Shown one piece after another: positions 6,343 to 32,282 of a stretch of DNA of 33,938 nt. This DNA is from Candidatus Azambacteria bacterium RIFCSPHIGHO2_02_FULL_52_12 (GTDB lineage Bacteria; Patescibacteriota; Minisyncoccia; GWC2-36-17; WO2-46-25), in assembly GCA_001775835.1 (NCBI GenBank), contig MEYP01000005.1, forward strand, positions 13,457-47,394, read 5' to 3'. The translations under genes were made by a program, and so were the position numbers. The notes under the pieces are model-generated. The model saw only the letters and a list, made by a program, of their open reading frames with translations, was not told the DNA's origin and did not search any database. Each line of letters starts with the position of its first letter. Position 1 is the first letter of the stretch.

Positions 6343-6960
6343 TTAGAACCCGAGCTTTTCGCGCACCAGGATCAGGTGCACTTTTCTTCCCATAAAGACG
6401 GGTTCCCGCTCGAAGATGACGAGCTTGGAAATGGCGCTCCCGCCCATACCGACCTCTTTCATGCGCTTGTCTTCAAGCGGAAGAACATGCTCGCGCACGC
6501 GCGCGAGCGCTCTATCGAGATTTTGCGTTATCTTCTGCGTGCTTGCGACGAATATGAGGTTTGGCGAAGTGAAAACGATGTGGGGCAACTGACTGCCGGA
6601 ATTGGAAGCAATGATAAACTCGCCCGTCTCTGCGACCGCGTGCACGCTCCCCAGATAATAATCCGAGAGAACCGCCTGCTTGCGGAGCGTTGCCTGTTTC
6701 GCGGAATCCTTCTCGGCAAGGATTTCCTCATGCAGATTCTTCCAGCCGTGCGCGCCCGATTTGAGCCAGTCCACATACCCGATTTCCTCCAGCGTGCGCG
6801 AGGAGCCGTTCATCACCGAAGCGCCCTTGGAAATAAGCTCTTTTATTTTCTCAAGCGCTTCCGCACGCGTATCGACCGATATGCCCTCAACACCGCGCTC
6901 CGCAAGCGCGGCAATGGTCTTTTGGATGGATTTTTCGTCTGCTAATGTTTCGTAGTTCAT
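6343..6960 (-). CDS. LUD-domain (YkgG/lactate utilization) protein
   Basis: GSSRTLEEIG, SVHAVAETGE, SNSGSQ, QKI and C-terminal EKLGF. Confidence 0.85.
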   Translation of the reverse strand: MNYETLADEKSIQKTIAALAERGVEGISVDTRAEALEKIKELISKGASVMNGSSRTLEEIGYVDWLKSGAHGWKNLHEEILAEKDSAKQATLRKQAVLSDYYLGSVHAVAETGEFIIASNSGSQLPHIVFTSPNLIFVASTQKITQNLDRALARVREHVLPLEDKRMKEVGMGGSAISKLVIFEREPVFMGRKVHLILVREKLGF

Positions 6961-6969
6961 GTGAGTCTG

Positions 6970-8082
6970 TTATCGTTTCGGGCACGGCTCGCCGCCGGGA
7001 AGGCCGCACACTTTTATTTTTCCGCCGGAAGTAGTCGTGGGGGCCGTTGTGGCGGGTGCTGTTGGAGATGAAGGGGTTGCATCGGCGCTCGTGGAATCCT
7101 GCCCCGACGGAGGCACCACGCAATTGATTTCAAGGCGCTTCTTGGGTATCGCCCAACTGTAGTTTCGGCGTTCTCTTCCTATCCATGGTTTCCTTACTTG
7201 TTTCTCTCCTTCGAAAACGGTCATGGTAGTCTGAAGCGTGTAGTAAAACAAACTGCCGGCAAGAGGCGCGTCATAGCCCGCTTTGGCGCAGGTAAACCGG
7301 TTCGTTACCCGGTACTCTTCTGTGGCGGCGAGATCTGTTTTTTTGAGAATAATCTCCTGCGGTTCGACGCGCTCAAATGTTCTTATGCGATGCGGACTTC
7401 TGAAATCGGGGTTTACCTCCCATCGGGTGCCGTTCGCGATCTCAAGCATCGTATGGCGTCCGGATGCCTGAGCGACGTTTGGATCGGACTCGTCCCAATA
7501 CCCCCGAAACTCCCATTTTCCTCCGGGAGTGATGGCATAAGTATGATCGAATGACTGACCGACCGCGACGGTGATTTCTCCATCGGGGATATTCCGTGCG
7601 TCAAAGATCATCGCATCGGCCTTGGCGAGAAAATTGGAGAAGTGCGGCAACTCGCCGGAAACGGTAAGCGTCTTTTGTTTTTCATCCAACTGGAAGTCTG
7701 TGATATTAAGACCCTCAATCTTCCCCTCCTCGTCGGGATCAATAAGAAAAACCGGTGAATACGCCCTGTTCGGATCATACGGAAATGTAACCGATATCGT
7801 TGCGGGTTTCGAGAACGTAAGTCCGTCCGGCTCAAGCCGGTAGACTTTCACCAAATCAATGGGCTGATTGCTTTCTTTGATAACATCCGCGGGAGCAATC
7901 GCGGTCATTGTTATATCCCCGACAGCGCCACCCACAAGAACCGTGTCTTTGGGTATGCGCAGTTCCGCCGCGCCGTCATTCGCGCGCACAACAAAGGCAT
8001 CATCGGCCTTTTCCGGAAAAGCAAAGTACGCTCCCGCGAGCGCCAGCACAAGCAAAACCGCAAAAAGAGAAAGCTTCTTCAT
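6970..8082 (-). CDS. Secreted/anchored protein with ZU5-like domain and Pro/Thr-rich tail
   Basis: Signal-like start MKKLSLFAVLLVLALAG; YRLEPDGLTFSKPATI...PHFS; P/T/A-rich linker and terminal Cys pair. Confidence 0.65.
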   Translation of the reverse strand: MKKLSLFAVLLVLALAGAYFAFPEKADDAFVVRANDGAAELRIPKDTVLVGGAVGDITMTAIAPADVIKESNQPIDLVKVYRLEPDGLTFSKPATISVTFPYDPNRAYSPVFLIDPDEEGKIEGLNITDFQLDEKQKTLTVSGELPHFSNFLAKADAMIFDARNIPDGEITVAVGQSFDHTYAITPGGKWEFRGYWDESDPNVAQASGRHTMLEIANGTRWEVNPDFRSPHRIRTFERVEPQEIILKKTDLAATEEYRVTNRFTCAKAGYDAPLAGSLFYYTLQTTMTVFEGEKQVRKPWIGRERRNYSWAIPKKRLEINCVVPPSGQDSTSADATPSSPTAPATTAPTTTSGGKIKVCGLPGGEPCPKR

Positions 8083-8123: not shown

Positions 8124-8645
8124 CTACATAACGCACTCCGGCGTTTCGCAATTGTTAGGGTCCCAGCAGAATCCCGATCCTTCCCCCACCGTGCAATTTG
8201 CGCCCACCGCATAGGAATCGCGGTCAAAGGCGTTGATTTCATAAATACTATCCCAGTCAAAACCATATGCCGCAAAGATGTCCGCTGTAGCGATCCATCG
8301 CTTCTCGCCCGTATCACCTTTGGGATAGAGCATGAATACGCGCGGATCGCCGACTGCCCGAACCAAATGCGACGTGGTGAAACCGTCTCGTACGGCGGGC
8401 GTTACCTCGCGGATATCCTCCCAACGCAAATGTCCGTAGTTATCAAATACGCTCGGACTCAAAACCAGCCGCTTGAACTTTTTTGCGCCGACATATTTCA
8501 CGATATAGACATCGATATCGCCTGCGGCACGGATCAATGCGCCATCAGGCAGGGTGAAAGTCGCGCTTTGAGCAGAAACAAAAAGGGCGGATGCGCCAAG
8601 CGCCATGACGCTCACCGCAAACGTAATGATATATTTTTTCATCAT
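8124..8645 (-). CDS. Secreted hypothetical protein with two internal repeats and a Cys-rich tail
   Basis: Signal peptide; repeats LIRAAGDIDVY...KRLV...W and LVRAVGDPRVF...KRWI...W. Start at MMKKY after TATAAT. Confidence 0.7.
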   Translation of the reverse strand: MMKKYIITFAVSVMALGASALFVSAQSATFTLPDGALIRAAGDIDVYIVKYVGAKKFKRLVLSPSVFDNYGHLRWEDIREVTPAVRDGFTTSHLVRAVGDPRVFMLYPKGDTGEKRWIATADIFAAYGFDWDSIYEINAFDRDSYAVGANCTVGEGSGFCWDPNNCETPECVM

Positions 8646-8670
8646 GCTATTATTATACACCATAATCTCC

Positions 8671-8748
8671 AAAACCACCCAGAACTTCTTCAGGAAATCC
8701 TGCGCATCATGCGCACGGGCTGAATCCCCCTACGGCATTATCCCGCCC
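8671..8748 (-). repeat. 78-bp imperfect palindromic repeat, copy 1
   Basis: Gapless alignment to 11451 and 12509; central TGCGCAT-C-ATGCGCA. Confidence 0.95.
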
Positions 8749-8804
8749 GGGCTCTTTTATCGCAAACATAGAGCTGCAAATAATACCGTCTCCGTCCCCA
8801 TTTC

Positions 8805-9314
8805 CTAGAGTCCGTGGTCCATTGTCTGGGCCATGAACCACTCATGAAAGGCATCAATAATTCGCGGGTCAGAGGAGCGATACGCAAGCTGGGCGCCATC
8901 GGCGAGCTCTTCATAGGCGACGGTAAATGCTCCCGGTGATTCTTTCAGCACAGCAATGCCCGGCATGCTTTCTCCGTGCAGGGTTTGCGGATCGCCAAAA
9001 TCTCCCTTGGCAAACCGCTCTTGCTCCGCTTTCAGGTGAGAACGGATAAGCGCGATCTGCTCGCGATCGTTCGGATCTTTTGCCCGTACCTGCTGGATAC
9101 CGCCCTCCGGCGTCTTATTGAATAAGTGCGTCGTTTTAGCCAAATCAAACGGCATGACCAGCGACCCTCGATCATGAATCATCATTTGCCGTTTGGCGAT
9201 ATCCGAAGGAGGCTGCACCCAAAGCGCATCGCCGCGCTGCCACCAATATGTGCCGCCTACAGCGATTGCGCCGCCAAAAGCAATGAGAATAAAAAGGATC
9301 GTCTTGCGTTTCAT
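8805..9314 (-). CDS. Conserved membrane-anchored hypothetical protein
   Basis: N-terminal TM; VMPFDLAKTTHLF, GDFGDPQTLHGESMPG and HEWFMAQTMDHG motifs. Confidence 0.75.
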   Translation of the reverse strand: MKRKTILFILIAFGGAIAVGGTYWWQRGDALWVQPPSDIAKRQMMIHDRGSLVMPFDLAKTTHLFNKTPEGGIQQVRAKDPNDREQIALIRSHLKAEQERFAKGDFGDPQTLHGESMPGIAVLKESPGAFTVAYEELADGAQLAYRSSDPRIIDAFHEWFMAQTMDHGL

Positions 9315-9339
9315 ATCGCGCTTATCTCATTTGTACGGT

Positions 9340-9783
9340 CTATATGATCCGGGTAAACACTTCCGCGCCTGCGCCGTCGTTGATCTGAAAAAGACGTATC
9401 CAGTCCGGCCGTACTTTGAACACCGAAAAATCATACCCGGGAATTTTCAGAAAAATATCGTAGTACGACTTCCGCTTCGTGAGAAACGCTCCCATGACCG
9501 TCTCGCGTTCCGTTCCCTCTACGGGTTCCGCGGTGCCTTCTATCTGGATGCTTACCGGTCCGGGCCCCGTACCGACAACCATCGCCACCCGGCGGTTATG
9601 CATGAGATTTTCATGCTTGCGCGTTTCGCGCCGCGTTGTGAAATAGAACGTCCAGTCGTCTTCCACGAAGTACGTGACGACGGCTGCCTGCGGTCTTCCT
9701 CCCGCGTTCACCGTAGCAAGCACGGCATGTTCTTGTTCCCGTAAAAACACCATGCAAAACTTTTGAGCATCCGCTTTGGTCAT
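9340..9783 (-). CDS. Pyridoxamine 5'-phosphate oxidase-like FMN-binding protein
   Basis: VLATVNAGGRP, FTTRRETRKHENL, IQIEGTA. Start is MTKAD (9783) or 9795. Confidence 0.85.
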   Translation of the reverse strand: MTKADAQKFCMVFLREQEHAVLATVNAGGRPQAAVVTYFVEDDWTFYFTTRRETRKHENLMHNRRVAMVVGTGPGPVSIQIEGTAEPVEGTERETVMGAFLTKRKSYYDIFLKIPGYDFSVFKVRPDWIRLFQINDGAGAEVFTRII

Positions 9784-9838
9784 GCTACTATGCATTATAC
9801 CCCTCTCCGCCTCTTTTTGAAACCACTTCTCCCAGACA

Positions 9839-10132
9839 CTAGGATTTAATCTTAAACGGTCGCTTGTTAACCTCTTCTAGAATTCTCAGCGTCGCATGCA
9901 CCGAAAGATTGTCGCTCGGCAAAAGAATTAGACGATCGCCCAATTGATGAAGCAATGGACTCAAAAATTCATCCGCCCATGAGGGCGATAATGTGAATAC
10001 GCCGGAAAAATCAATTTCCAGCTCTTCATCTTGAGAAAGCTCGCGCAGGGTCGGCTGAAACGCCTTAAAGGCCTCACCCCCCAATTCCCGCGATAGCAAT
10101 GTTTTACCAAACTTTTCCAGTTGCAGTTTCAT
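9839..10132 (-). CDS. STAS-like DUF4325 protein
   Basis: LLSRELG...IDFSGVFTLSPSWADEF pattern. Confidence 0.8.
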   Translation of the reverse strand: MKLQLEKFGKTLLSRELGGEAFKAFQPTLRELSQDEELEIDFSGVFTLSPSWADEFLSPLLHQLGDRLILLPSDNLSVHATLRILEEVNKRPFKIKS

Positions 10133-10145
10133 ATATTTTTATTTA

Positions 10146-10274
10146 CTAAAATTCTATTTCTGCCAGACATCCCCGTACGATACGCTGACCGCGCGTAACA
10201 CGAAATGCTTTATCCGATCCTTTCATGCGCACTTCGGCATCACCGCTGGTTGAGAAGAGAAAATAAGTGGACTC
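10146..10274 (-). pseudogene. Probable C-terminal remnant of the ATPase-like partner normally upstream of DUF4325
   Basis: Open frame ...FSTSGDAEVRMKGSDKAFRVTRGQRIVRGCLAEIEF* with no convincing start; GC-richer than the adjacent TA genes; stops 13 nt before the DUF4325 start. Confidence 0.5.
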
Positions 10275-10275
10275 C

Positions 10276-10671
10276 CTACAAAATTTTAGAATATTCGGGA
10301 TAATTTTCTTTCACTAAATTCTTCCAGCTTGCAGTTTCGTTACCGCCACCCAGATCATTTTTATTGTAAACAACTAACACCTTAACGACGCAAGTATTTT
10401 TATATACAGCGACAATGCAACGGTTTCCTGAAGCGTGTCGAGATTCCTGCGTGCCATGAACACGAAATTCTGTCTTACAAATTCTTATACCTTCCTGATC
10501 GGTCATGGTTTCCGCAATATTAGTTTCCCCGATAAGCGCATCGATACGCTTAAACTCTTCATGTATTGCGTTCCATGTCACATCCCAAGCCCCTTTATAT
10601 TTTTTCTTAAACTTAGAGATAAAGTGTCGCTCAGCATATTTTTCAACGATAACGGCATAATTAATAGACAT
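10276..10671 (-). CDS. Putative RelE/ParE-like toxin
   Basis: 131 aa, overlaps the antitoxin gene; SGNRCIVAV...VKVLVVYNKND resembles the RelE/HigB C-terminal pattern. Confidence 0.55.
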   Translation of the reverse strand: MSINYAVIVEKYAERHFISKFKKKYKGAWDVTWNAIHEEFKRIDALIGETNIAETMTDQEGIRICKTEFRVHGTQESRHASGNRCIVAVYKNTCVVKVLVVYNKNDLGGGNETASWKNLVKENYPEYSKIL

Positions 10672-11344
10672 AATCAGGATCTTGCTGAATTATCAGTTCG
10701 TACGGTATGGCTTCATCAGGAGCGCAAAGTTTGTACGGAAGTTGTTCATGAGTAAAATCGACAATATCGCGAGTATTTTTATTTTTCCATTTTCCACCGA
10801 TTTTTTTTATAAGTTCTACTTCTTTATCATTCAGCAAATCAAGTTTTTGTTTAGAAGAGGAACCGGAAAGCGACACAAGAAACGCGTCTCCTTTATGATC
10901 AACGGATATTTTACCTTCTTCCTCAAGCTCTGTAAGGGCTCGAAAATAAGGGTCGGGTACGGGACCATACGCACGGCGCAGATACTGCATCCCGCTCATG
11001 CTATTCAGATTTTTGTAATACCATGCAAAATCAGCAAGATAGAGTAACTTTGCTAATTTTGTTTTTGGTATTTTGCCGTCAGTAGCTACGGAAGATTTTA
11101 GATATGCAAGGATCATTTGTTTATACTTCTCGTATTTGGGCAACGTTGCGCTGGCAAATTCCTCAATAGAAATACCAAACAAATCTTTTAATTTCTCCGC
11201 TTCTTCTAAAGTTATTTCACGACTTCCATGCTCAATACCAATGTATGAAGGTCTTGAAATATTAAGCTTCCCGGCCATAAAAGACTGGGAAAAACCCCGT
11301 CCCGTTCTAAGAGCCTTGATAAATTGCGCATATTTATTACTCAT
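10661..11344 (-). CDS. XRE-HTH plus Panacea (DUF4065/SocA) antitoxin
   Basis: N-terminal HTH (SQSFMAGKLNISRPSYIGIEHG); KLAKLLYLAD, YGPVP and FTHEQLPY motifs. Start MSNKY chosen from promoter position. Confidence 0.88.
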   Translation of the reverse strand: MSNKYAQFIKALRTGRGFSQSFMAGKLNISRPSYIGIEHGSREITLEEAEKLKDLFGISIEEFASATLPKYEKYKQMILAYLKSSVATDGKIPKTKLAKLLYLADFAWYYKNLNSMSGMQYLRRAYGPVPDPYFRALTELEEEGKISVDHKGDAFLVSLSGSSSKQKLDLLNDKEVELIKKIGGKWKNKNTRDIVDFTHEQLPYKLCAPDEAIPYELIIQQDPDYVY

Positions 11345-11351
11345 ATATCTA

Positions 11352-11403
11352 AGCATATAGATTTATGTAAAAAAGTCAAGCATGGGGTGTTAATAAACTT
11401 GAC
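11352..11403 (-). promoter_or_regulatory. Promoter TTGACT-16-TATGCT with inverted repeat GTCAAG...CTTGAC (candidate autoregulatory operator)
   Basis: -35 at 11374-11379, -10 at 11352-11357; inverted hexamers at 11375-11380 and 11398-11403. Confidence 0.5.
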
Positions 11404-11450
11404 ATTATGCATGTACGCATAGCGCTTTTTCTTCGTACTGTTAAAACTTT

Positions 11451-11528
11451 AAAACCACCCGGAACTTCTTCGGGAAATCCTGCGCATCATGCGCATGGGC
11501 CGAATCCCTCTGCGGCATTACCCCGCTC
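11451..11528 (-). repeat. 78-bp imperfect palindromic repeat, copy 2
   Basis: 8 differences from copy 1, all transitions. Confidence 0.95.
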
Positions 11529-11572
11529 TGTGCGCAGAATATCGCATGTACCTTGCTCAAGGAAATTCTTAA

Positions 11573-11612
11573 GGATAACCAAAAAGCGCCGAGCGGCGCT
11601 TTTTGGTTATCC
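11573..11612. terminator. Bidirectional intrinsic terminator
   Basis: Perfect 18-bp stem GGATAACCAAAAAGCGCC-GAGC-GGCGCTTTTTGGTTATCC. Confidence 0.85.
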
Positions 11613-11786
11613 AGTTTTTGCCTTTAGACGGGATTGTTCAAATACCCTTCTTTGATCTTCATTCGCCTTTCGTATGACCTCTTGAAATAGGCGCTTTTTT
11701 TCTCGAGAACTTGCATCATTAAAAAAAGCTGAAAAATCGCTCTTTTGCAAGCTTTTGCCAAATAATTTAGTTAAAATCCGTTTCAT
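11607..11786 (-). CDS. 59-aa zeta-toxin-associated small protein (putative antitoxin); absent from the ORF track
   Basis: MKRILTKLFGKSLQKSDFSAFFNDASSREKKRLFQEVIRKANEDQRRVFEQSRLKAKTG; ATGA overlap with the zeta gene stop. Confidence 0.75.
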   Translation of the reverse strand: MKRILTKLFGKSLQKSDFSAFFNDASSREKKRLFQEVIRKANEDQRRVFEQSRLKAKTG

Positions 11787-12484
11787 TTAATGAGGTTTAT
11801 TAATTCTTCTTCAGTATATATCTTGTCTAAATAATGGTCAATGGTGTCAATATTCAATTTAAGAAGCTCTAACCCGGTATTAAAATTCTTTATGATGAGG
11901 TTTAATTCTACTTTGTCCTTGAATTGCCGTTTCGCTTCATTCACATTCTCTCTTGAAGCAAGAAAACCCTTGATAAACATCTCTTTTGAAACTCTTCGAT
12001 GCTCAATTTCCTCTCTTTTCTTAGTAAAATCCCACGCAACAATAGGATCTTGGAAAAGATAGAAGATTTCAATCTTCCTGCCATGATCAATTGACCTTTG
12101 AATATTGAGAAGCGCTCCTTTGTAAGCGAAGGTTCCGTCTAAAACAACATTAAGTTGATTTTTAATGACATAATCGTAAAGTTTATTGACGCCAATTGAG
12201 CAGGCTGACTGAAATAAATGGGCATTGCTACCATTGTAATTAGGAAACATATTTCTAATCTCATCCGCATCAATTCGAACCGGCTTAGTAGAAAACCTCT
12301 CAATCAAACGCTTGGAAACTTCTGTTTTACCGGCACCCGGTGAGCCAGCCATAAAAAGAGAAACGGGACTGCTATCCGGTTTATAAAATGCCGGGTCGGC
12401 AAACTTTTTTATAAGCTTTTCTTTTTGCTCTTTTATAAATCTTTCCGATTCGGCGATAATTTTTTGTTCCTCATTATTTTCCAT
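11783..12484 (-). CDS. Zeta toxin family P-loop kinase
   Basis: FMAGSPGAGKT Walker A; RIDADEIR, VVLDGT and RRV motifs. Confidence 0.88.
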   Translation of the reverse strand: MENNEEQKIIAESERFIKEQKEKLIKKFADPAFYKPDSSPVSLFMAGSPGAGKTEVSKRLIERFSTKPVRIDADEIRNMFPNYNGSNAHLFQSACSIGVNKLYDYVIKNQLNVVLDGTFAYKGALLNIQRSIDHGRKIEIFYLFQDPIVAWDFTKKREEIEHRRVSKEMFIKGFLASRENVNEAKRQFKDKVELNLIIKNFNTGLELLKLNIDTIDHYLDKIYTEEELINLIK

Positions 12485-12508
12485 AAATCTATTGTACCCT
12501 ATAACACC

Positions 12509-12586
12509 AAAACCACCCAGAACTTCTTCAGGAAATCCTGCGCATCATGCGCATGAACTGAATCCCTCTACGGCGTTGTCCCATTC
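12509..12586 (-). repeat. 78-bp imperfect palindromic repeat, copy 3
   Basis: 9 differences from copy 1, all transitions. Confidence 0.95.
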
Positions 12587-12688
12587 CGCTGAAAAATTGA
12601 CCTGGTCTTTATACCTTCTGGAATACAAACAAATGCTCGTGCATTATCAATAAAAAATTTGATTCTTTTGATTGTTTTAATTTCATAT

Positions 12689-12919
12689 TTAGTTAACGAT
12701 GCCCGTCTTGCTTATCTGTTTCTTATTTTTAAAAAACTTTAAACTACACAGTGAACAATAGTTTTCAGCTACTTTATCAAAAAACGACATGACCACTGAC
12801 TCCTTTATTTCTTCTTGTGTTTTAAATCCAATATTATACTTTATAAAAATTTCACGCGGAGTACATCGAGCCATATCCAATAAAATTTTGCCTATCTCTT
12901 CTTTCTTTTTTGTTTTCAT
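12689..12919 (-). CDS. Small hypothetical protein
   Basis: 76-aa ORF co-oriented with its neighbours in AT-rich DNA. Confidence 0.45.
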   Translation of the reverse strand: MKTKKKEEIGKILLDMARCTPREIFIKYNIGFKTQEEIKESVVMSFFDKVAENYCSLCSLKFFKNKKQISKTGIVN

Positions 12920-12977
12920 AAAATCAGATGTAAACTAATAATACTCTGATCTTTGATCGAAATGGAAATAAAGTCAA

Positions 12978-13748
12978 CTACCGCACTTGATAAGTTCCTC
13001 GCTCCACAAAATCAAGATATCCTTTATCGCGCAAAACTTGTAGCTGTTGGCGGATTTTATCCTTGATATGCTTATTATCAGGGTGTAATTGGCTCAAATC
13101 TTTTTCAAACGCATATATATCATCGAGTCGAAATTCTTTTTTACCGATTTTGTCCACATACCGCATCACATCAAGCAGCCAGCCTTTCGCTGAAGCTTCT
13201 TTTTCTTCCCGCAGGAACAGCGTCTTCTTCCATTCCGCAAGCACTTTTTCCTTCGATTCAACTTGCTTATTTTTAACAAAAAATATTTTCCCCGTTTGCG
13301 GAATGCTTTGTAAGAGAATATTGCAACCAACCCAGCCCGCACGGCGAGCTGTCAGCGCAAGCTTTTTTCTCTTCTCGATTATTTCCGGCACAAAAAAGTG
13401 TTTTGGAATAACAAGAAAGTTTACAACTTCAAGGCTTGCTAAATTATAATTCAAAAGAAAAAAGTTTGGATTACTGCTACTAGTCAGCCGCTCAAGCATT
13501 GTGCGGTACGCTCCGTCAACAATCTTGTTCCCCATGCTATCTCGCTTACTCTTCAATTCATAATCTTCATTGCAATTTGGACAATAAAAATCACCGACGG
13601 GCTTGTTACTTTTGTATTTCCCTAAATCAACATATCCGCAATTCGGACAAAATATGGAATTGCCGACCCATGCTTCCGTCAAAACACGCGCTCTTTGCGC
13701 TAGATTTTTGTAATTCTCGGCAAGTTTTGTGTTAAAACCTAATTCCAT
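12978..13748 (-). CDS. DpnI-family (Dam-replacing) m6A-dependent restriction endonuclease
   Basis: CPNCG...DFYCPNC.EDYELKSK, IVDGAY, NPNFFLL, RRAGWVGC; winged-helix HIKDKIRQQLQVLRDKG. Confidence 0.93.
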   Translation of the reverse strand: MELGFNTKLAENYKNLAQRARVLTEAWVGNSIFCPNCGYVDLGKYKSNKPVGDFYCPNCNEDYELKSKRDSMGNKIVDGAYRTMLERLTSSSNPNFFLLNYNLASLEVVNFLVIPKHFFVPEIIEKRKKLALTARRAGWVGCNILLQSIPQTGKIFFVKNKQVESKEKVLAEWKKTLFLREEKEASAKGWLLDVMRYVDKIGKKEFRLDDIYAFEKDLSQLHPDNKHIKDKIRQQLQVLRDKGYLDFVERGTYQVR

Positions 13749-13917
13749 AGTTATTGTCCCTTGTCTCAATTTCCATCATTGAATAAATTTTCTAGATATA
13801 TAGCTATTCTGTGACTCATGGATTGTTCGTATGCGTGAAGACTCAGTAATTCAATATTATTATCAAGAAAAATTTAAACTACACTTTCGACTTTGCTTTA
13901 TAAATTTTCCATATTTT

Positions 13918-16740
13918 TTAACCTAACTTTTCCTTATTAAGAATTAATTTTATTTCTAGTTTGCTACACAAACTTTGTTTTTCAGAAATTTTCATATCAA
14001 ATTTGTACAGATATTCAATTACAAGTATGCGAAGGATTCTTCTTGCTAGGTAATTTTTTTCAAAAATTCTATCTAGATTTATAATTTCTTCAGAATGTAG
14101 TCCGCCTGGAAAATTAAGTCTAGCAGCCAAGTTAACAAGCTGGACACCTGGTCGTAAATCCTTTTCCGAAATCTTTTCCATGGTAGGAAATATATTTTTT
14201 GATGCGACGCTATTACTTATCCTTTTTAAAAAAGCATAAACAATCATTTCAGTGAAATTTTGAATGATTTTATCAGCAATTCGTTCTTTCTCAGCCTCAT
14301 CCACAGCCTTCTTCTTCTCAACCACCTTAAGGACTTCAATTTTAAGAGACTCAGCAAACTTTCCAAAATCATCAAGAAGTGCACCTAGAGCCCTAAAACC
14401 CAAGGAATTAATCTCAATTAGTATCTCTGCTTTCCTCTTACCCTCTAATGAGCCATAGTAATTTTGAGTAATTTGACCCATTATCTCTAACAATTTAAAA
14501 GACAAATTGATCTCTCCAAATAGGCCTAAATCTTTTTTGCTTTTGTGTTCTTTTTCTTTCTTATTGTCTTTCTCGTTAACTTCTTCGATTTCATCTCTCT
14601 TGGCAAGCTCTTTTTTCCGATATTCACTCGGTTTCTCGTCCTTGATAGTGAAACTAACTTCTTGGCGAATTAATTTATTAATTTCAAAGGATGCAGAATT
14701 TGTAAGCGCAAAAGGTTCAACTTCTTTGAAGAGATCCGAAGATTCTTTGATTATTTTCTCTAGAATTGATTTGCTTTTTGAATGATGTATTAAAAAGATT
14801 AGGATATTTGCATATTCTGTGCGGTATAGATGTTTAGTAATCTCTTCAATGTTTTGTTTAATATCATCATTTTCAATGTTATCGGCAAAATATTTTGCAA
14901 CAAAAAAATAATAAGAATAGTTATGACTGAATGAATATGAGTCATCATAAAATCTCAATATCTGGGCTCTATTTAGAAGCGGGTGGAGTATATCGAATTC
15001 TTTATCAATATCCATCTCTTGACTATAATTTTTATATATAACTTTAAGCTCGTTCAATGGTATAGATCTTTGACCTTTTCTAAAAAAAGAATATGCAAGG
15101 TATGATAAGTATGTAAGATAAAAATCAAGATCTTCTGGCTTTGCATTAACACTACCTAAAGACTGGATAATAAGATACGTATAAAGTTCTGCATATGAAC
15201 TACCTTGGAGCTTGTTTTTACTCGTAGTCTCAATTAACTGCAGAATTGTAAGCAGATAAAGCGGGTAGGTGGGAATAAAGTTTGTACCTACTGCAACTCT
15301 AATCTTTTCAGATATTTCAATTTTTTTATTATGTATATCACTGTCAGGAGTAATATCACCATCACCGGCTGTTAACCATTTTTCAATAAGCTTATCTCGC
15401 AAGACATAACCAAGTTCTTTTATTTTCAGTGGTATAAAACCAGTTAGTTGTTTTCGAGTTTCACTGTCGGCCATTACTTCAATCTCCATAGATTTGTTAG
15501 CAAAGATAATGACATTTTCAAAATGCTTATTTAGAAATTCATGAAAATCTGCCCTCGCTTGTGTCCTTTTAATACTAAGTGATTCGTAATTATCTATAAT
15601 TAGAGAGATTTTTGAGTTATCCTTCGAAAGGATGTCCTCGAAACAGCTAAGATATTGATCTCCATCAGAATATTGTTTTTTAAAAGAAGTTTTTAAAAGG
15701 TTTGTAAATTTATTTAAATCTGCTTTTTTTATATCTTCAGCATCTAAATAAAGCGAAATGAACCCTTTGCTGTTTATATCTTTTTGAAGCATTTGTGCCA
15801 AAGTCGTCTTGCCCGACAGGTCTTCTCCGAAAACCAGACATTTCTTGAGACCCTTTTCCAGTTCTACAAGTTTTTTAGAGTCAATTTTCTCTTGTTTCTC
15901 GTCCTCAATGGGTTCAAGACTTGGATAAATAAAGATGTCTTCCAAAGAAAGCACATCTTTACCAGGATGCGTGATATGCATCCCTATTTCATTTATTTTC
16001 CTAACATATACATCAGAAAGATTCATGCGCTCTGGACAAACTTGGTTGGCAAATATACCTATTTTGGGAAACTCACACACTTTTTTGCAATTAATATCTT
16101 TATGAAAGATCTCCGTCTGTATAAAAAAATCTAAAAGAGTGGCTTCTTTTACTAGCTCAGAAGTGAGGGCATTGGTAAAAATGACCCCATCTGGCATGCC
16201 TCCATTTAAGGTCTCGACAGCCCAGAAATTGCCCCGCTGTGAAATCACCAATGATACATTTCCAATTTTATTTTTATCTTTAATAGTCTCCTCGACAGCT
16301 CTTTCAGACAAGATACTTGGTTGAATAACTTTAGCATTAACATAAGCTTCGATAAGTTTGTCTGGAGTATAAAAAAAGAAATCGTGATTATTATCTTTTT
16401 TTAATTTATCGACTAAGCCCTCAGCATCTTTTGTTAGCGGTGCAGTAACCACAAGCCACGCCTCAGCATATTTATTGATCTCCTTTACTCCAAAAAGTTT
16501 TGTAATAACTTCAGCAGAAATATTTTTAGATTCATTATAGGCTTTGCACTCAACGTAGATTTCTTTACCATTAGTTTTATGTACACACAACAAATCCAGC
16601 TCCATGCCAGTAAGTCGTAGTTGTTTTTTAACCGCGTAATTTTGCGTTTCAAGAAGTTCTCCAGTTAACTTCTCGAGTATTTTACCCTTTTCTGTGGATG
16701 ATTCCGATTTTAAAATGGCGACTTTAATCGACTGAGACAT
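13918..16740 (-). CDS. Mrr-like nuclease fused to STAND/NACHT-like NTPase and a helical C-terminus
   Basis: N-terminal KGKILE...ELDL...YVECKAY (PD-ExK); Walker A GEDLSGKTT; Walker B LIIDNYE; PLYL; YSFSHNY. Start MSQSIK. Confidence 0.85.
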   Translation of the reverse strand: MSQSIKVAILKSESSTEKGKILEKLTGELLETQNYAVKKQLRLTGMELDLLCVHKTNGKEIYVECKAYNESKNISAEVITKLFGVKEINKYAEAWLVVTAPLTKDAEGLVDKLKKDNNHDFFFYTPDKLIEAYVNAKVIQPSILSERAVEETIKDKNKIGNVSLVISQRGNFWAVETLNGGMPDGVIFTNALTSELVKEATLLDFFIQTEIFHKDINCKKVCEFPKIGIFANQVCPERMNLSDVYVRKINEIGMHITHPGKDVLSLEDIFIYPSLEPIEDEKQEKIDSKKLVELEKGLKKCLVFGEDLSGKTTLAQMLQKDINSKGFISLYLDAEDIKKADLNKFTNLLKTSFKKQYSDGDQYLSCFEDILSKDNSKISLIIDNYESLSIKRTQARADFHEFLNKHFENVIIFANKSMEIEVMADSETRKQLTGFIPLKIKELGYVLRDKLIEKWLTAGDGDITPDSDIHNKKIEISEKIRVAVGTNFIPTYPLYLLTILQLIETTSKNKLQGSSYAELYTYLIIQSLGSVNAKPEDLDFYLTYLSYLAYSFFRKGQRSIPLNELKVIYKNYSQEMDIDKEFDILHPLLNRAQILRFYDDSYSFSHNYSYYFFVAKYFADNIENDDIKQNIEEITKHLYRTEYANILIFLIHHSKSKSILEKIIKESSDLFKEVEPFALTNSASFEINKLIRQEVSFTIKDEKPSEYRKKELAKRDEIEEVNEKDNKKEKEHKSKKDLGLFGEINLSFKLLEIMGQITQNYYGSLEGKRKAEILIEINSLGFRALGALLDDFGKFAESLKIEVLKVVEKKKAVDEAEKERIADKIIQNFTEMIVYAFLKRISNSVASKNIFPTMEKISEKDLRPGVQLVNLAARLNFPGGLHSEEIINLDRIFEKNYLARRILRILVIEYLYKFDMKISEKQSLCSKLEIKLILNKEKLG

Positions 16741-16827
16741 AATGTTTTGGGCGTACTTCCCGAGTGCGAGAATTACACATAAATTAGCTGGCCTTATGGG
16801 ACGATGTTGGAACTGCAATAAAGATGT

Positions 16828-17361
16828 TTAGTAATGCAAGCAAAATAACTTCAGTAGAAAAATCCAAGGCATAACTGACAATAAAAGTGCAGAATAAATA
16901 ACAATAAAAATCCAAGGAACCCAAATCTCGATATGGGTAAAAGGCCAGTATATACTTTTATCCTTGCCTCTTCCTAAGATTTCCCATTCCGTATCGTAAA
17001 GAGCTAAAGGTAAACGTGCCTCTATTATGTGAACAACATTATATTTTCCACCATTAAGGCCTTTATAAGACAATACAATTCGATACCATAAATAACACAT
17101 TGTTATTCCCGCTATAGAAGAAAGGATTAGTAGCCCCGTGATTTCATTTTGTGAAGTTTTTGTAGCAACAAATCCCAACAAAGCTACAAGCCCAGTATTT
17201 AGGCCGAGAAAAAACTCATTGGCCTTTTGTCGACGATCACTTATTTTTTCGGCAGAGTTTATATAGATTTTATACTGCTCTAAAAGATGCTCTATATATT
17301 TGTCTCCGTATTTACTACTTTCAGAAACAAAAAGTATTTTTTCAAGATCATCCTTTTTCAT
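16828..17361 (-). CDS. Small multi-TM protein (RipA/SLATT-like pore-forming effector candidate)
   Basis: LLEQYK...SDRRQKANEFF, two TMs, SYKGLN..KY..IE..LP, EW, third TM. Starts 1 nt after the TIR stop. Confidence 0.7.
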   Translation of the reverse strand: MKKDDLEKILFVSESSKYGDKYIEHLLEQYKIYINSAEKISDRRQKANEFFLGLNTGLVALLGFVATKTSQNEITGLLILSSIAGITMCYLWYRIVLSYKGLNGGKYNVVHIIEARLPLALYDTEWEILGRGKDKSIYWPFTHIEIWVPWIFIVIYSALLLSVMPWIFLLKLFCLHY

Positions 17362-17362
17362 G

Positions 17363-17770
17363 TTAAGCGAGTTCGCGAATACCAGATACAATAGAGCCCG
17401 TGTTCCACTTCACGATTTTATCTGCATTGTCTTTCACTACTTGAGACGTTCTTTCGCTCGCGAATGGTTCTATTGCGAGAATGGGTTTAGGAATTGTAAA
17501 CCCTTTCGCAATATTAATTTCTTTATTGATCCAAATGCTATAGGTTGAATAAACTCCGGCGAGCATGATAATCACATCACAAAATCGCATTTGATTTTGT
17601 ATTGCCGCCGTTAATGCAATGGAATTGGGAGCGTTATGAATAGGATCGTCCTTTGGAACTGAATAGTCCTTAAAGTTAAATCGTGGGTCATTTTTAAGCA
17701 TTTTAACAAGCCTTTCATAATTATCCTCATAAGCCCATGAATGGCTGATGAATATACTGTATTGTTTCAT
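17363..17770 (-). CDS. Stand-alone TIR domain protein (ThsB/MTH538-like)
   Basis: IFISHSW, DYS, CDVIIMLAG, WINKEI (catalytic Glu position), KPILAI. Confidence 0.9.
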   Translation of the reverse strand: MKQYSIFISHSWAYEDNYERLVKMLKNDPRFNFKDYSVPKDDPIHNAPNSIALTAAIQNQMRFCDVIIMLAGVYSTYSIWINKEINIAKGFTIPKPILAIEPFASERTSQVVKDNADKIVKWNTGSIVSGIRELA

Positions 17771-17887
17771 ATATCCTTGGTTAATAGTAAATAATACCTT
17801 CTACCTTGACTGTGTTCATAACTTTTATAAAAATTTTGTCTTATTAAGCTTATAATGTTTCTAGAAAATGTGGGGATAAGTCACTTA

Positions 17888-17946
17888 TGGACTTTCTACT
17901 TTTTTCGTATATACTGTAATTATATGCCTTTCGAATAATAAGTCAA
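17888..17946. promoter_or_regulatory. Overlapping opposed sigma70-like promoters
   Basis: + strand: TGGACT(17888)-16-TATACT(17910). - strand: TTGACT(17946)-16-TATAAT(17924). Confidence 0.55.
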
Positions 17947-17955
17947 CAATAAAAA

Positions 17956-19299
17956 ATGTTGGGGAAAAGAAAAAAACAAATATTAGATTTCGTCAATAGC
18001 TATGTTGGCAAGAATGGTTTTGCCCCATCTCTTGAGGAAATAAAAAAGAAAACCGGCCTTTCTTCTGTGTCGACAGTCCACCACCATCTTAAAGACCTTG
18101 AGAAACAAGGTTATATTAAACGACATGAGGGCAAGCCAAGAAGTATCGAAGCGAGAGATTTAACGGTTACAATTCCCTTGCGAGGATACATTGCTGCAGG
18201 CCAACCCATTGAAGCCATTGAGGTATATGAAACTATTGATGTTCCAAAAAATCTTTTGTCGGGTTCTGGTGAGCATTATGCTCTAAGAGTCTCAGGAGAC
18301 AGCATGATCGACGAAGGTATTTTTGATGGCGATACAGTTGTTGTTAGAAAACAAAATAGTGTTGAAAATGGAGAGACAGCAGTAGCTTTAATAAATGACA
18401 ATGAAGTTACTCTTAAAAAGATTTACAAGGAAAAAAACCGTATCAGACTGCAACCAGCGAATCCAAAATTAAGACCTTTCTATTTTAAAGAGGTGATTAT
18501 TCAAGGCAAGGTTGTAAGTACATTCAGAAATTTCGAAGAACAGGAGAAAAAAGATACTTTTAAATTTAATCAATTCCTCTGCGGAGACGTTTTAGAAATG
18601 ATCAAAAAAACTCCAGATAATTCAATACATTTTGCAGTAACTTCTCCACCATATAATGTTGGTAAGGACTACGACAACCATAACGATAAAATGAATCACC
18701 AAGAATATCTTGATTGGTTATATAAAGTCTGGATTGAAACAAAGAGAGTGCTTGTAGATGGTGGTCGTTTTGCAATCAACATAGCCCCTACTGGTATACG
18801 AGATTTTGTACCAATTCATCACGACTATATCGAACAAATGAAAAAACTTGGTATGAAATTCCGTACAGAAATTTTATGGTATAAACAAACAATGTTAAAA
18901 CGAACTGCTTGGGGTAGTTTTAAGAGTCCGTCTAATCCACACATTGTGCCATCATGGGAATATGTTTTGATTTTTACTAAAGGTGATAATCGCTTAGATG
19001 GTGATCAAAGAATGGCAGATATTACAAAAGAGGAATTTATGAAATTTTCTGATGGATTTTGGAAGATCCAGCCAGAAACAAAAAGGAAAGGACACCCCGC
19101 ACCATTTCCAGAGGATTTAATTTACAGGTTGATGAAATTTTACTCTTACAAGGGTAATAATGTGTTGGATATGTTTGGCGGAACCGGGACAGTTGCGGCG
19201 GTTGCTGCGAAAACAGGAAGAAATTTTATTCACATAGATATTTCACCGCAATACTGTAATGTGGCGAAAGATAGAGTAAATAAAATTCTAGGAAAGTAA
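17956..19299 (+). CDS. lexA: LexA repressor fused to beta-class N4-C/N6-A DNA methyltransferase
   Basis: LexA HTH (PSLEEI...SSVSTVHHHL..LE..GYI), IAAG cleavage site, GDSM Ser, TLKK Lys; then TSPPY, HPAPFP and DMFGGTGT in one frame. Confidence 0.9.
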   Translation: MLGKRKKQILDFVNSYVGKNGFAPSLEEIKKKTGLSSVSTVHHHLKDLEKQGYIKRHEGKPRSIEARDLTVTIPLRGYIAAGQPIEAIEVYETIDVPKNLLSGSGEHYALRVSGDSMIDEGIFDGDTVVVRKQNSVENGETAVALINDNEVTLKKIYKEKNRIRLQPANPKLRPFYFKEVIIQGKVVSTFRNFEEQEKKDTFKFNQFLCGDVLEMIKKTPDNSIHFAVTSPPYNVGKDYDNHNDKMNHQEYLDWLYKVWIETKRVLVDGGRFAINIAPTGIRDFVPIHHDYIEQMKKLGMKFRTEILWYKQTMLKRTAWGSFKSPSNPHIVPSWEYVLIFTKGDNRLDGDQRMADITKEEFMKFSDGFWKIQPETKRKGHPAPFPEDLIYRLMKFYSYKGNNVLDMFGGTGTVAAVAAKTGRNFIHIDISPQYCNVAKDRVNKILGK

Positions 19300-20097
19300 A
19301 TCGTCTTTAGTAAGTAGTTCATCTGAAAAATTCGCAACAACCTCTTTTCGCCACATTTTTAGATCTTCAAAAAGCTTATTAGCACCGTCTTGTTTGGTGA
19401 AATCTAATTTACAAATCTGCGAACATTCGGTAGTTAGTGGATGCGTCGTATAAACACGATCGAGGTATGCTTCACATTTTTTTCTCAACCCACTTGCGTC
19501 ATTATCACCTTTCATAAACTTCTTATCGAGGTCTTGAGTCATTAAACAATACTTAATGTTGTTATCTCGCAATGCAAGAGCCCAAAACAGCACAGCGTCA
19601 TTTCTGCTATGATCGCTTGTCTTGCAATTGAGTAAAGCAAACACCTTTAGTGTGCCTTTGCTGTCTTTAGTTAAGACAACAATGTCTGAGTCAGGCCAAA
19701 CACCAGTTGTTTTTTGTGTGCAACGACGGTTTGCTTTTAATGTTAAAAATTGAACAATATCCTTTGCTTTAGGATGTCGTTTTAATTGGTCCCCCTTAAT
19801 AGCCATGATTCCTTCCCGGTTCAAGGAGTCATTTATCAGATTACGAACAAATTCCTCAAAATTATTTCCACTTGCCACCACCCAACTTTGCCGAGCTTGG
19901 TTAAGATCACGTCCATTTTCAAGGCATAATTTAATATAAATTTCCTGAGTCATTTCCATAACCTTACCCTCTGGAACTTCTACTTCTTGAACAATAGCCA
20001 AAATTTGCCCAACATCTTTGATGGGTTTTATTCCAAAACCTTTTAGTTGCTCCTTGGCTTTTTGGTATATTTCCTCAAAGTTAATTTTTGTAGCCAT
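19288..20097 (-). CDS. Type II restriction endonuclease, BsaWI-like PD-(D/E)xK
   Basis: QSW...GNNFE, PDSDIVV, LLNCKTS; convergent with the MTase and overlapping it by 12 nt. Confidence 0.75.
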   Translation of the reverse strand: MATKINFEEIYQKAKEQLKGFGIKPIKDVGQILAIVQEVEVPEGKVMEMTQEIYIKLCLENGRDLNQARQSWVVASGNNFEEFVRNLINDSLNREGIMAIKGDQLKRHPKAKDIVQFLTLKANRRCTQKTTGVWPDSDIVVLTKDSKGTLKVFALLNCKTSDHSRNDAVLFWALALRDNNIKYCLMTQDLDKKFMKGDNDASGLRKKCEAYLDRVYTTHPLTTECSQICKLDFTKQDGANKLFEDLKMWRKEVVANFSDELLTKDDLLS

Positions 20098-20227
20098 AAT
20101 TTTAGAAGAAATGGGATCGAGCTTTCTTCCGAGGACTCTATTGTTGATCATTGGAAAAATCAACCCATATTGTAATTATGCAGTAAGTAGCGTAAATTAT
20201 CAATTAATATGTGTATATCTAAACTAC

Positions 20228-21076
20228 ATGAAAGACATTGTCGATAGACTCAAAATCCGTTACGAGGCCGCTCTACAAAGCAGCTCTGATTCGCTGTTTT
20301 ATCAAAACGTACATGCGTATATTGATTTTATAGTCAAAACCCCTGTCCTCTCTGCGATTATGGATAAAGGCGAGGAAGAATATCATAACAAGCACTCTGA
20401 GATAGTCCATGTGCGAGCACTTACCGACCAAAAGGCTGATGAGAAAGAACAGCTTATTAATAGGCTTGAGCGTTTCTCTCTGTTCGCAGCACATTACTGC
20501 ACCCTACTCATAAAAATATATAACCCTATTGAAGATTATAAAAACTCTACTGAACCAGATGCTGAGCAAGATCCCGTTGCGCTTCTCATGCTTAAAGGGA
20601 TTAAGAATATCAATACACAACGATGGGGTCAGAAAACACTTGAAATATACAATGGACACTATGATGGCAAACGAAAATCCTATGAAGATGATTTACGACA
20701 ATTTCACGTTGATTTTCTGACCGAAATAGAAAAGGTAGAGACAATAAAAGAAAAACCAAAAATTAGTTTTGATAAGGAAAACAGCATATTGCATATTGAC
20801 GATAAAGATGTCCACATAAAACTAAAGAACGATAAACCAAATGATCACTATGTGCTTGAATATATTTTTGAGAATGAGGAAGGTTTAAAGGAAAAATCAT
20901 TTTATTCTGATATTATCAAAATAAAGTTTGAGCGTGAAAAAGTAGATAATATGTCGTTATACCGCTCTTGTAAGGCTATTAGCAGAAAAGTAAGCGAGCA
21001 GGCAGGGCTAAGTAATTTTCTTGTCATTAAATCTGGGAAAACTGGCTATACACATATAAATCCTGACTATCTATAA
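20228..21076 (+). CDS. Hypothetical protein with probable C-terminal winged HTH
   Basis: Start MKDIV; C-terminal ISFDKENSIL...SLYRSCKAISRKV...GY resembles an OmpR-type wHTH. Confidence 0.6.
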   Translation: MKDIVDRLKIRYEAALQSSSDSLFYQNVHAYIDFIVKTPVLSAIMDKGEEEYHNKHSEIVHVRALTDQKADEKEQLINRLERFSLFAAHYCTLLIKIYNPIEDYKNSTEPDAEQDPVALLMLKGIKNINTQRWGQKTLEIYNGHYDGKRKSYEDDLRQFHVDFLTEIEKVETIKEKPKISFDKENSILHIDDKDVHIKLKNDKPNDHYVLEYIFENEEGLKEKSFYSDIIKIKFEREKVDNMSLYRSCKAISRKVSEQAGLSNFLVIKSGKTGYTHINPDYL

Positions 21077-21113
21077 ATCTTACCCGTAAGATGCTGTAAC
21101 GGCGCTGTGAGAG

Positions 21114-21139
21114 AATCACCTTATTAAATTAAGGTGATT
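21114..21139. repeat. 10-bp inverted repeat covering the RBS region of the small ORF
   Basis: AATCACCTTA-TTAAAT-TAAGGTGATT. Confidence 0.7.
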
Positions 21140-21144
21140 TTTTT

Positions 21145-21309
21145 ATGTCTTTTCAATTCAGCGAAAACCTCATAGCAGAGACGATTAAATGCTTCAAAGA
21201 AGAGGATGGTTTGGACGTATCCCCTGCGCAAGCAAATGAGTATCTGAACTCTTTTGCTGATTTGTTTTTGGCGTTTGCGGGCGGGCGTTCACGCCCGCCC
21301 CTGACTTGA
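21145..21309 (+). CDS. 54-aa small protein; absent from the ORF track
   Basis: MSFQFSENLIAETIKCFKEEDGLDVSPAQANEYLNSFADLFLAFAGGRSRPPLT, preceded by AAGGTGA. Confidence 0.6.
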   Translation: MSFQFSENLIAETIKCFKEEDGLDVSPAQANEYLNSFADLFLAFAGGRSRPPLT

Positions 21310-23582: not shown

Positions 23583-23593
23583 ACGATCCCGCA
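23523..23593 (-). tRNA. tRNA-Gln(CTG)
   Basis: TGCGGGA/TCCCGCA acceptor stem; CGACC-CTCTGAA-GGTCG anticodon arm; GGTTCGAATCC. Confidence 0.95.
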
Positions 23594-29057: not shown

Positions 29058-29063
29058 CAGAAG

Positions 29064-29152
29064 CTGGAATCTAGAAAATAGAACCTAGAATACAAGGGAG
29101 GGTATGAAGGAATGTTTCCCTTTTCTACTTTCTAGTTTCTAGATTCTATTTT

Positions 29153-29157
<5 letters not shown>
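29064..29157. repeat. Inverted arrays of TAGAA-core heptamers
   Basis: ctggaat ctagaaa atagaac ctagaat ... ttctact ttctagt ttctaga ttctatt ttctatt. Confidence 0.75.
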
Positions 29158-31615: not shown

Positions 31616-31626
31616 ATATGCTTACT

Positions 31627-32280: not shown

Positions 32281-32282
32281 AG

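Follow-up and report, generated by a model that had tools for sequence, protein, structure and literature searches.

A 33,938-nt stretch of the genome of Candidatus Azambacteria bacterium RIFCSPHIGHO2_02_FULL_52_12 (contig MEYP01000005.1, positions 13,457 to 47,394; hereafter the window) carries three co-oriented copies of a 78-bp repeat, located between minus-strand genes, and the question raised by this locus is what the repeated unit originally was and whether it marks the points at which blocks of genes were joined to each other. The original prediction, made from the letters of the window, had considered a recombination site folded from single-stranded DNA, a small mobile repeat or a new structured RNA. 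The present analysis indicates that each 78-bp unit is very probably the dead 5' stub of a CopB-like P1B-type ATPase gene, read on the minus strand. More tentatively, at slightly less than even chances, the units are regarded as att-like (attachment-site-like) junction repeats of serially inserted cargo modules, with the recombinase acting in trans.

The three copies, c1 (8671..8748), c2 (11451..11528) and c3 (12509..12586), all with the stub on the minus strand, were found again by a repeat finder as a family of 83 nt (8664-8746, 11444-11526 and 12502-12584), the second and third members of which are 88% and 87% identical to c1. In the 78-bp frame the copies align without gaps and differ by transitions only, with 8 changes between c1 and c2, 9 between c1 and c3 and 11 between c2 and c3; the positions, the type of change and the common direction thus agree with what had been described originally. 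Their similarity is beyond chance, as judged from nhmmer E-values of 1.6e-25 to 7.1e-25 for the three copies against 0.96 for the next match in the same genome. This genome (G000; 923 kb in 28 contigs, 96.1% complete, GC content 51.2%, the window lying on its contig C5) was searched throughout by BLASTN, the check suggested in the original prediction, and also exhaustively by nhmmer, and holds c1-c3 only, within 4 kb and in one orientation. One further copy, 84-89% identical and in a syntenic place, was found in G002, a genome of the same family and a different genus. The unit was not found in the single other genome of the same genus (1/1), in 9/10 other genomes of the family, in 17/19 genomes of the order or in a sample of 401 genomes of the phylum, and a sample of 401 genomes of the class gave no unit and only three partial matches of 19-27 nt; overall, the genomes in which it was not found number about 1,400. 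An exact 23-mer pattern with 21 specified bases was matched by three stretches of genome contigs, four of metagenome contigs and none of viral contigs. The only true copy among them was that of G002; in the other six stretches, which resemble unrelated coding DNA, the similarity ends at the edge of the pattern.

On the minus strand the unit consists of about 12 nt of a ribosome-site region, a start codon and 22 codons, and is cut where the first membrane helix begins. The stub ends in the conserved pre-helix motif H-x-A-x-D-F-L-K-K-F-W-V-V, and the TGCGCA that the original prediction had placed at the apex of a hairpin corresponds to the codons for His-Ala-His-Asp-Ala (H-A-H-D-A). The start ATG is intact in c1 and c2, and c2, reading MPQRDSAHAHDAQDFPKKFRVV..., is the sole copy with both an intact ATG and an open frame of 25 codons (MPQRDSAHAHDAQDFPKKFRVVLKF, then a stop). 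In c1, which lies in DNA of host-like GC content, the stub reads MP, a stop at codon 3 and then GDSARAHDAQDFLKKFWVV. The start of c3 has changed to ACG, so that it reads TP, a stop at codon 3 and RDSVHAHDAQDFLKKFWVV, the remaining frame being RDSVHAHDAQDFLKKFWVVLVL; the G002 copy reads LPYRDPTHAHDADDFLKKFWVV.

The starting clue to this identity was a 25-nt partial match at the 5' end of a heavy-metal P-type ATPase gene in the genome G089. A profile was made from 24-residue N-terminal segments, ending in ...FWV/I, of six ATPases from relatives, with G089 excluded; since the six had been picked by whole-protein homology and not by their resemblance to the repeat, the test is not circular. When the profile was compared with 33,811 stop-to-stop six-frame fragments of G000 and the G002 contig, c3, c1 and the G002 copy occupied ranks 1-3, with E-values of 2.3e-5, 4.3e-4 and 4.6e-4, respectively. 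The E-value for c2, the frame of which carries Leu-to-Pro and Trp-to-Arg changes, was 2.7. Furthermore, the 22-aa peptide of c3 gave 45 non-self matches in the 401 class genomes, 35 of them in open frames of 640-778 aa. Among 28 loci that were fetched, 24 had an open reading frame (ORF) bearing the motif, the ORF pattern used having missed the other four; DKTGT was present in 22 and CP[CHS] in 23 of these 24, and all five that were tested against Pfam contained E1-E2_ATPase plus Hydrolase.

Several other searches with the unit were negative. No family was matched by the four unit peptides of 21-25 aa in an NCBIfam scan, a homologous-protein search with a 40-aa query that covered the c1 stub retrieved the protein of the window itself and nothing else, and none of six short-frame peptide matches examined as further stubs was convincing. 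Two short blastn matches (in the class or order of G089) were rejected, as they lie in peptidoglycan-binding-like ORFs with LQDFLKKF; matches of this kind mean that hits of 20-25 nt are non-specific when taken alone. Coding on the plus strand (NHPELLQEILRIMRMG...) had been considered because the differences between the copies cluster in the third positions of that frame, and was likewise rejected, there being no start, stops just upstream and an in-frame TGA in c1 and c3. The plus-frame peptide, used as a control in 19 genomes, matched only the units and no source gene.

The minus-strand frame is dead. Pairs of copies differ by 4-7 nonsynonymous versus 0-1 synonymous codon changes, and stops are present. 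Codon 3 is TAG in both c1 and c3, CAG in c2, one transition away, and TAT in the G002 copy, one transversion away. The TAG shared by c1 and c3 implies that the unit was probably non-coding already when it was multiplied, which is in keeping with a site rather than with an end that restores a gene.

Although the frame is dead, the unit has not decayed evenly. The 45 nt on the gene-3' side (8671..8715, corresponding to 11451-11495 and 12509-12553) form a conserved core with two dyad symmetries, a perfect 6-3-6 palindrome at 8701-8715 and an imperfect 9-5-9 inverted repeat at 8680-8702. Two variable sites are found in this core among the three G000 copies, as against 12 in the other 33 nt, an approximately eightfold lower variability per site in the core. 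Between c1 and c3 there are 0/45 differences in the core and 9/33 elsewhere (Fisher p 0.0002), and c1 and the G002 copy differ at 2/43 positions, compared with a neutral 27/162 in the neighbouring remnant of a DpnI gene (p 0.018). Between the two genera the core is 95% identical, whereas neighbouring genes are 73-82% identical. Since the frame is dead, this unevenness points to constraint or homogenisation at the DNA level.

All 14 of the 14 variable sites are transitions, the same as in the local neutral spectrum: a comparison of the DpnI 5' remnant of G002 with the G000 gene gives 24 transitions against 3 transversions. In the LUD gene, which is selected and saturated, 76 transitions stand against 77 transversions. 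Lineages deficient in mismatch repair accumulate almost exclusively transitions. No match to MutS_V (PF00488) or to the MutL core (PF01119) was found in G000 (96% complete), while the same searches were positive in 11/14 control genomes, and the missing matches agree with a transition-biased divergence of the non-coding remnants.

The limits of the repeat differ on its two sides. On the gene-3' side the homology ends at GGGTGGTT(TT), as had been claimed: in the G002 copy the limit is GGGTGGTT itself, and c2 extends 2-4 nt further. Unrelated DNA begins 0-4 nt past GGGTGGTT in c2 and G002 and about 21 nt later in c1 and c3, the latter two possibly sharing some 21 extra bases up to their -10 boxes (4/1000 shuffles, uncorrected for six comparisons). 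Past these limits the DNA following each of the four copies is mutually unrelated. On the gene-5' side the homology common to all four copies begins about 12 nt ahead of the start codon, and it is longer only in c1 and G002. A promoter was found within about 20 nt after the c1, c3 and G002 copies; the earlier statement that the repeat ends just upstream of the next promoter consequently holds for c1 and c3 and fails for c2, where a promoter-like site follows only after about 70 more nucleotides. The gene that comes first after c1, on the minus strand at 8124..8645, encodes a 173-aa signal-peptide protein of no known family, and its -10 box is about 20 nt past the unit.

Comparison with G002 shows how old the position of c1 is. 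In G002 a truncated DpnI 5' fragment, which shares 82% identity with the G000 gene, is followed in order by a flank of 31 nt, the unit, a gene of 355 aa and the orthologous LUD gene. The flank upstream of c1 (8749..8806, minus strand) extends from the stop of a 169-aa gene and has a promoter-like TTGCGA, 17 nt, GATAAT inside; its distal 33 nt are homologous to the G002 flank (27/33 aligned positions, score 18.6, reached by 0/2000 shuffles). This common flank implies that c1 and the G002 copy are orthologous and older than the split of the two genera. Both copies are located on the same side of the same LUD gene, about 1-1.8 kb from it, yet the genes between unit and LUD are different, namely those of 173 aa and 393 aa in G000 and that of 355 aa in G002. 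The homology between the two genomes stops exactly at the LUD start codon (window 6960-6972; G002:C30 12303-12307), and the 393-aa and 355-aa genes end 9 nt and 1 nt before it, respectively. One end of the variable segment is thus set by the ATPase stub and the other by the start of a gene. The DpnI-type 5' fragment (G002:C30 13530-13691) comprises about 52 codons followed by two stops and matches window positions 13613-13774; a separate full-length DpnI with a different 5' end is carried on contig C24 of G002. Downstream of ftsX, the genes that the relatives G008, G003 and G009 have in common with the window are limited to ftsE/ftsX/RF; in G002 the sole addition is a homologue of a LexA-methyltransferase (MTase) fusion. 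No 'empty site' is therefore definable from this comparison.

The original view that the repeats are recombination sites delimiting gene blocks is compatible with these observations in the form of a double-stranded, att-like site, and its version as a folded single-stranded site, similar to attC, found no support. According to the att-type reading, the stub served, and perhaps still serves, as an att-type site for circular cargo modules, which would have been integrated serially, through Campbell-type recombination at its gene-3' end or close to it. The modules would be a Zeta-toxin pair, a block containing a SocA/Panacea TA (toxin-antitoxin) pair and possibly the block downstream of c1, and each insertion would have placed the site on either side of the module and thereby produced co-oriented direct repeats. 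The gene-3' 45 bp with the two dyads would be the protein-bound core, strand exchange presumably taking place at or just beyond GGGTGGTT. Because the modules encode no recombinase, it would have to act in trans, and the candidates are a large serine recombinase of the adjoining island and the single Xer-like tyrosine recombinase of the genome. Site-specific recombination, the enzyme responsible and any continuing activity of the sites are what we infer from the arrangement of the copies. A bolder version, in which the 45-bp core is the live site of an integron-like gene-capture array in Candidate Phyla Radiation (CPR) bacteria, with a trans recombinase shuffling promoter-bearing TA and defence cassettes and with an ATPase-derived site whose gene has since been consumed, is considered quite unlikely.

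Precedents for such a site are found in several known systems. In tandem accretion and in cis-mobilizable elements (CIMEs), such as the islands related to ICESt1 (PMC5704250), modules without integrase or transfer genes are arranged head-to-tail in one orientation between att repeats derived from the end of a target gene. Here, too, direct repeats from a target-gene end bracket modules that lack integration genes; in contrast to CIMEs, the source is the 5' end of an ATPase gene, the gene body is gone, no cognate integrase is adjacent, and the repeat is 78 bp long and 8-14% diverged. In Dehalococcoides ssrA islands and composites of the staphylococcal cassette chromosome (SCC), CcrB-type large serine recombinases drive tandem cargo islands flanked by repeats of a target-gene fragment, some of them without an integration module (PMC3146451), and a Ccr/XisF-like large serine recombinase occurs in the same region here. 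The ssrA repeats comprise about 20 bp of the 3' end of a gene that is kept intact, whereas the junction of the recombinase of the window is at a tRNA gene 11 kb away and is unlinked to the units. Islands in dusA use the 5' end of their target gene at a conserved stretch, and the displaced old 5' end survives as a remnant in the form of an imperfect direct repeat (PMC4482086). They have an adjacent tyrosine integrase, a 21-bp att site and a new 5' end that keeps dusA whole, while the units have no adjacent integrase and restore no gene. Integron arrays are similar in their co-oriented repeats after short blocks that include TA genes, in the sharp gene-3' boundary and in a recombinase encoded outside the blocks; they differ in that the units have no inverse core sites, no convincing folded strand and no IntI, and that one block consists of five genes. 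A full-text literature search, supplements aside, found no such site for Patescibacteria and no P-type ATPase gene as an integration target.

The large serine recombinase (22074-23582) is encoded next to a rolling-circle Rep (21343-22077), both on the plus strand, at the far end of the island. It has 502 aa, belongs to an integrase family of PHROG (E 5.4e-80) and shows a weak likeness to Ccr/XisF. The ORF of the serine recombinase overlaps, by about 60 nt, a complete tRNA gene of the minus strand (23523-23593). The recombinase and Rep, the latter with 44% GC compared with 35% next door, look like a separate small element integrated at the end of the island, and a search for direct repeats of the tRNA gene marking its other end gave only chance matches of 9-15 nt. 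The single tyrosine recombinase of G000 (PF00589), on G000:C15, is Xer-like, scoring 255.7 bits with a XerA-type model (cut-off 220) and 125.2 of the 265 needed with the integron-integrase model. In line with the original prediction, IntI is absent from the window (0/37 ORFs match Phage_integrase) and also from the genome, which is 96.1% complete.

A number of observations weigh against the att-type reading. None of the copies is followed by an ATPase body, as none of the 37 window ORFs matches E1-E2_ATPase, and the four P-type ATPases of G000 (at most 41% identical to the G089 type) are encoded on other contigs, none of them on C5, and have no nucleotide likeness to the unit. The array is thus without an intact target gene, such as known systems keep at one end; where a CIME would have it, c1 precedes the gene for the 173-aa secreted protein. 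At 9 loci of relatives, the surroundings of intact CopB-like genes, out to about 10 kb, contained no additional 5' stub, and the ATPase neighbourhoods of relatives show zero synteny with the window. Furthermore, c1 retains its ancestral upstream flank and hence was not itself split by the upstream modules. The gene-3' boundaries are near each other and not identical to the base. The uneven conservation could be an inherited constraint at the protein level if the copies arrived as diverged functional alleles. With carriers limited to two genomes, no gain or loss of a block exactly at the repeat is demonstrable. Finally, nothing connects any recombinase with the units. The serine recombinase is encoded about 9.5 kb away from the closest copy, no test associates it with them, and its own junction is at the tRNA gene, where no unit-like sequence is present.

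The units could instead be inert fossils, that is, a truncated ATPase stub copied twice in a non-site-specific way and without present function, an explanation that appears unlikely although still of some weight. The copying could have been by segmental duplication, by a homologous single crossover of circular DNA bearing the stub, or by arrival of c2 and c3 inside foreign islands that had earlier occupied ATPase genes in other hosts. As coding sequences the copies are all dead, their 14/14 transitions match the neutral decay seen in the DpnI remnant (24:3), neither MutS_V nor MutL core was found in G000, c2 and c3 are located in imported DNA of low GC content, the right-hand boundaries do not coincide strictly and none of the recombinases is linked to the units. 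What such fossils would not account for is the core, which, though non-coding, varies about eightfold less than the adjoining 33 bp and is, between genera, better preserved than the neighbouring genes, nor the fact that four different downstream contexts begin within about 25 nt of one point. A mobile repeat of the type of a repetitive extragenic palindrome or a miniature inverted-repeat transposable element (REP/MITE), one of the original options, would be in keeping with a short, GC-rich, partly palindromic and intergenic sequence. The three clustered copies in one orientation, the lack of terminal inverted repeats (2-6/20 positions complementary) and of target duplications, and the absence of the unit from the same-genus genome, from 9/10 family genomes and from about 1,400 genomes overall leave this option with hardly any probability.

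Two further explanations depend on structure at the level of a single strand or of a cis-acting signal. An attC-like site, recombined as a folded bottom strand by some recombinase or by the local HUH Rep, would account for repeats at the 3' end of blocks, for a sharp gene-3' and a fuzzier gene-5' boundary as in integrons, for the TA-like blocks and for the one double change from A-T to G-C that preserves the TTCAG/CTGAA stem. The long bulged hairpin proposed for the minus strand was, however, not borne out: minimum free energy (MFE) z-scores were -1.45, -2.08 and -0.63 for c1-c3 on that strand and -1.02, -2.73 and -1.83 on the plus strand, that is, folding no better than in shuffled sequences (within about 2 standard deviations), and the proposed fold is adopted by c3 only. 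The RNAalifold consensus of the minus strand lacks the claimed hairpin and differs from the consensus of the plus strand. The TTCAG/CTGAA stem with its swap appears in the plus-strand consensus only, as one compensatory pair, in a structure in which 5/17 pairs are broken in one sequence; on the minus strand it is broken in the G002 copy by two mismatches, and the covariation terms of -1.0 and -0.12 kcal/mol are negligible. The two 'compensatory' changes of c2 are, in the decaying ATPase frame, a Leu-to-Pro and a synonymous Ser change. There are neither R''/R' core motifs nor IntI; as had been noted originally, RYYYAAC and GTTRRRY ends are absent from both strands of c1-c3, the G002 copy having one internal match per attC motif and none at its ends. 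The block between c2 and c1, with five genes of mixed GC content, is moreover unlike a single cassette, and an attC-like site is accordingly judged improbable. Of slightly lower probability again is a cis-acting non-coding element, either a weak terminator or insulator RNA closing each block or an operator, in the form of the 6-3-6 palindrome, for a helix-turn-helix (HTH) protein. In c1 and c3 a terminator scan flagged a weak stem (9 pairs, 3 G-C and 2 G-T) ahead of a U-rich tail; further points in favour are the conserved core and the promoters within about 20 nt after c1, c3 and G002. In c2 nothing was flagged, and 45 nt upstream of it, between the 59-aa gene and c2, there is a strong canonical two-way intrinsic terminator with an 18-pair stem (11573..11612), so that the upstream block ends transcriptionally before the repeat already. 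Terminator-like sites in the region number 8, compared with 5.2 +/- 2.5 in shuffles, and the spacing between the palindrome and the following -10 box varies (about 62, 135, 62 and 82 nt across the four copies). A new structured RNA, as also proposed originally, is not supported by the weak folding and negligible covariation, nor by Rfam, where no family matched the copies; Rfam 15 at gathering scores finds only three tRNAs in the window, and at E-values up to 1 a single sub-threshold sraL match (11577-11729) outside the units. The sequence is fully explained as former coding DNA.

The gene blocks around the copies are consistent with the original description in that each of the two enclosed blocks includes a TA-like pair, namely HTH-SocA/Panacea and a 131-aa ORF in one and Zeta toxin and a 59-aa ORF in the other. 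Between c2 and c1, the block (8805..11356, minus strand) contains HTH-SocA/Panacea (10661-11356), the 131-aa ORF (10276-10671), a DUF4325-like 97-aa ORF (9839-10132), a PNPOx-like gene (9340-9795) and the 169-aa ORF (8805-9314), and is a mosaic of 40% GC at 9839-11356 and 54% GC at 8805-9795. The block between c3 and c2 (11607..12484, minus strand, GC 36%) consists of a Zeta-toxin-domain kinase (11783-12484) and the overlapping 59-aa ORF (11607-11786). Upstream of c3, a defence island of 35% GC (12587..21300) comprises a 76-aa ORF, a DpnI-type methyl-directed restriction endonuclease, an Mrr-STAND protein (PDC-S60), an 8xMP plus ThsB-TIR pair, a LexA-MTase fusion, a BsaWI-like restriction endonuclease and a 352-aa ORF. 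The order along the minus strand, 5' to 3', is tRNA, serine recombinase and Rep, BsaWI-like endonuclease, LexA-MTase, ThsB-TIR and 8xMP, Mrr-STAND, DpnI, 76-aa ORF, c3, Zeta toxin and 59-aa ORF, terminator, c2, HTH-SocA/Panacea, 131-aa ORF, DUF4325-like, PNPOx-like, 169-aa ORF, c1, 173-aa secreted protein, 393-aa gene and LUD. The units thus sit at the host-proximal edge of a composite foreign region, at the joints between blocks, and have a host-like GC content of 51-58% (58% in c2) inside DNA of 36-40% GC. In Logan contigs from the runs X8-X11, with a depth of about 3 that is blind to rare variants and junctions, c2 and c3 are bridged in the same arrangement and no joint at a unit was seen.

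Coverage was uneven in parts of this region. The segment 9854-10281, comprising the DUF4325-like 97-aa ORF and the following spacer, is covered 3-15x as deeply as the adjoining DNA in three further metagenome runs, by many contigs with variant letters and loose ends, which suggests a sequence common to other, more abundant organisms; parts of 11566-12207 are similarly over-covered in run X11. Within the island, a LexA DNA-binding domain and S24 peptidase are fused to an N6/N4 DNA methyltransferase in a single ORF (17956-19299, plus strand), which adjoins the gene for the BsaWI-like endonuclease and has a 39%-identical homologue near ftsX in G002:C24. The ThsB-like TIR protein is followed by the octameric membrane protein 8xMP (16828-17770, minus strand), and these may form a two-gene defence pair without ThsA. 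Elsewhere in the window, a RhuM-Fic fusion (4876-5856, minus strand) corresponds to the PADLOC candidate PDC-S23 (E 3.9e-111) and lies beside RNase R in a separate patch of 41% GC. Three paralogous ORFs (212, 217 and 220 aa) that belong to no Pfam family lie in tandem at 30977-32945 on the minus strand and are seen as periodic repeats of 644-665 nt (families D2-D7), and a 32-nt inverted repeat of TAGAA-type heptamer units (29059-29154) is located just upstream of lepA.

For scans that rely on sequence alone, the locus provides a caution, since a repeat that appeared palindromic, transition-only and 'compensatory' is former coding DNA under transition-biased decay. If the stubs are inert fossils, the finding is an ordinary one. 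If they are att-type junctions, they would provide a concrete and testable example, with site, candidate enzymes and modules all delimited, of how islands of defence and TA genes are assembled in the ultra-small genomes of CPR/Patescibacteria, which have few recombinases, and in this case the target gene would have been sacrificed while its 5' end persisted as a landing pad.

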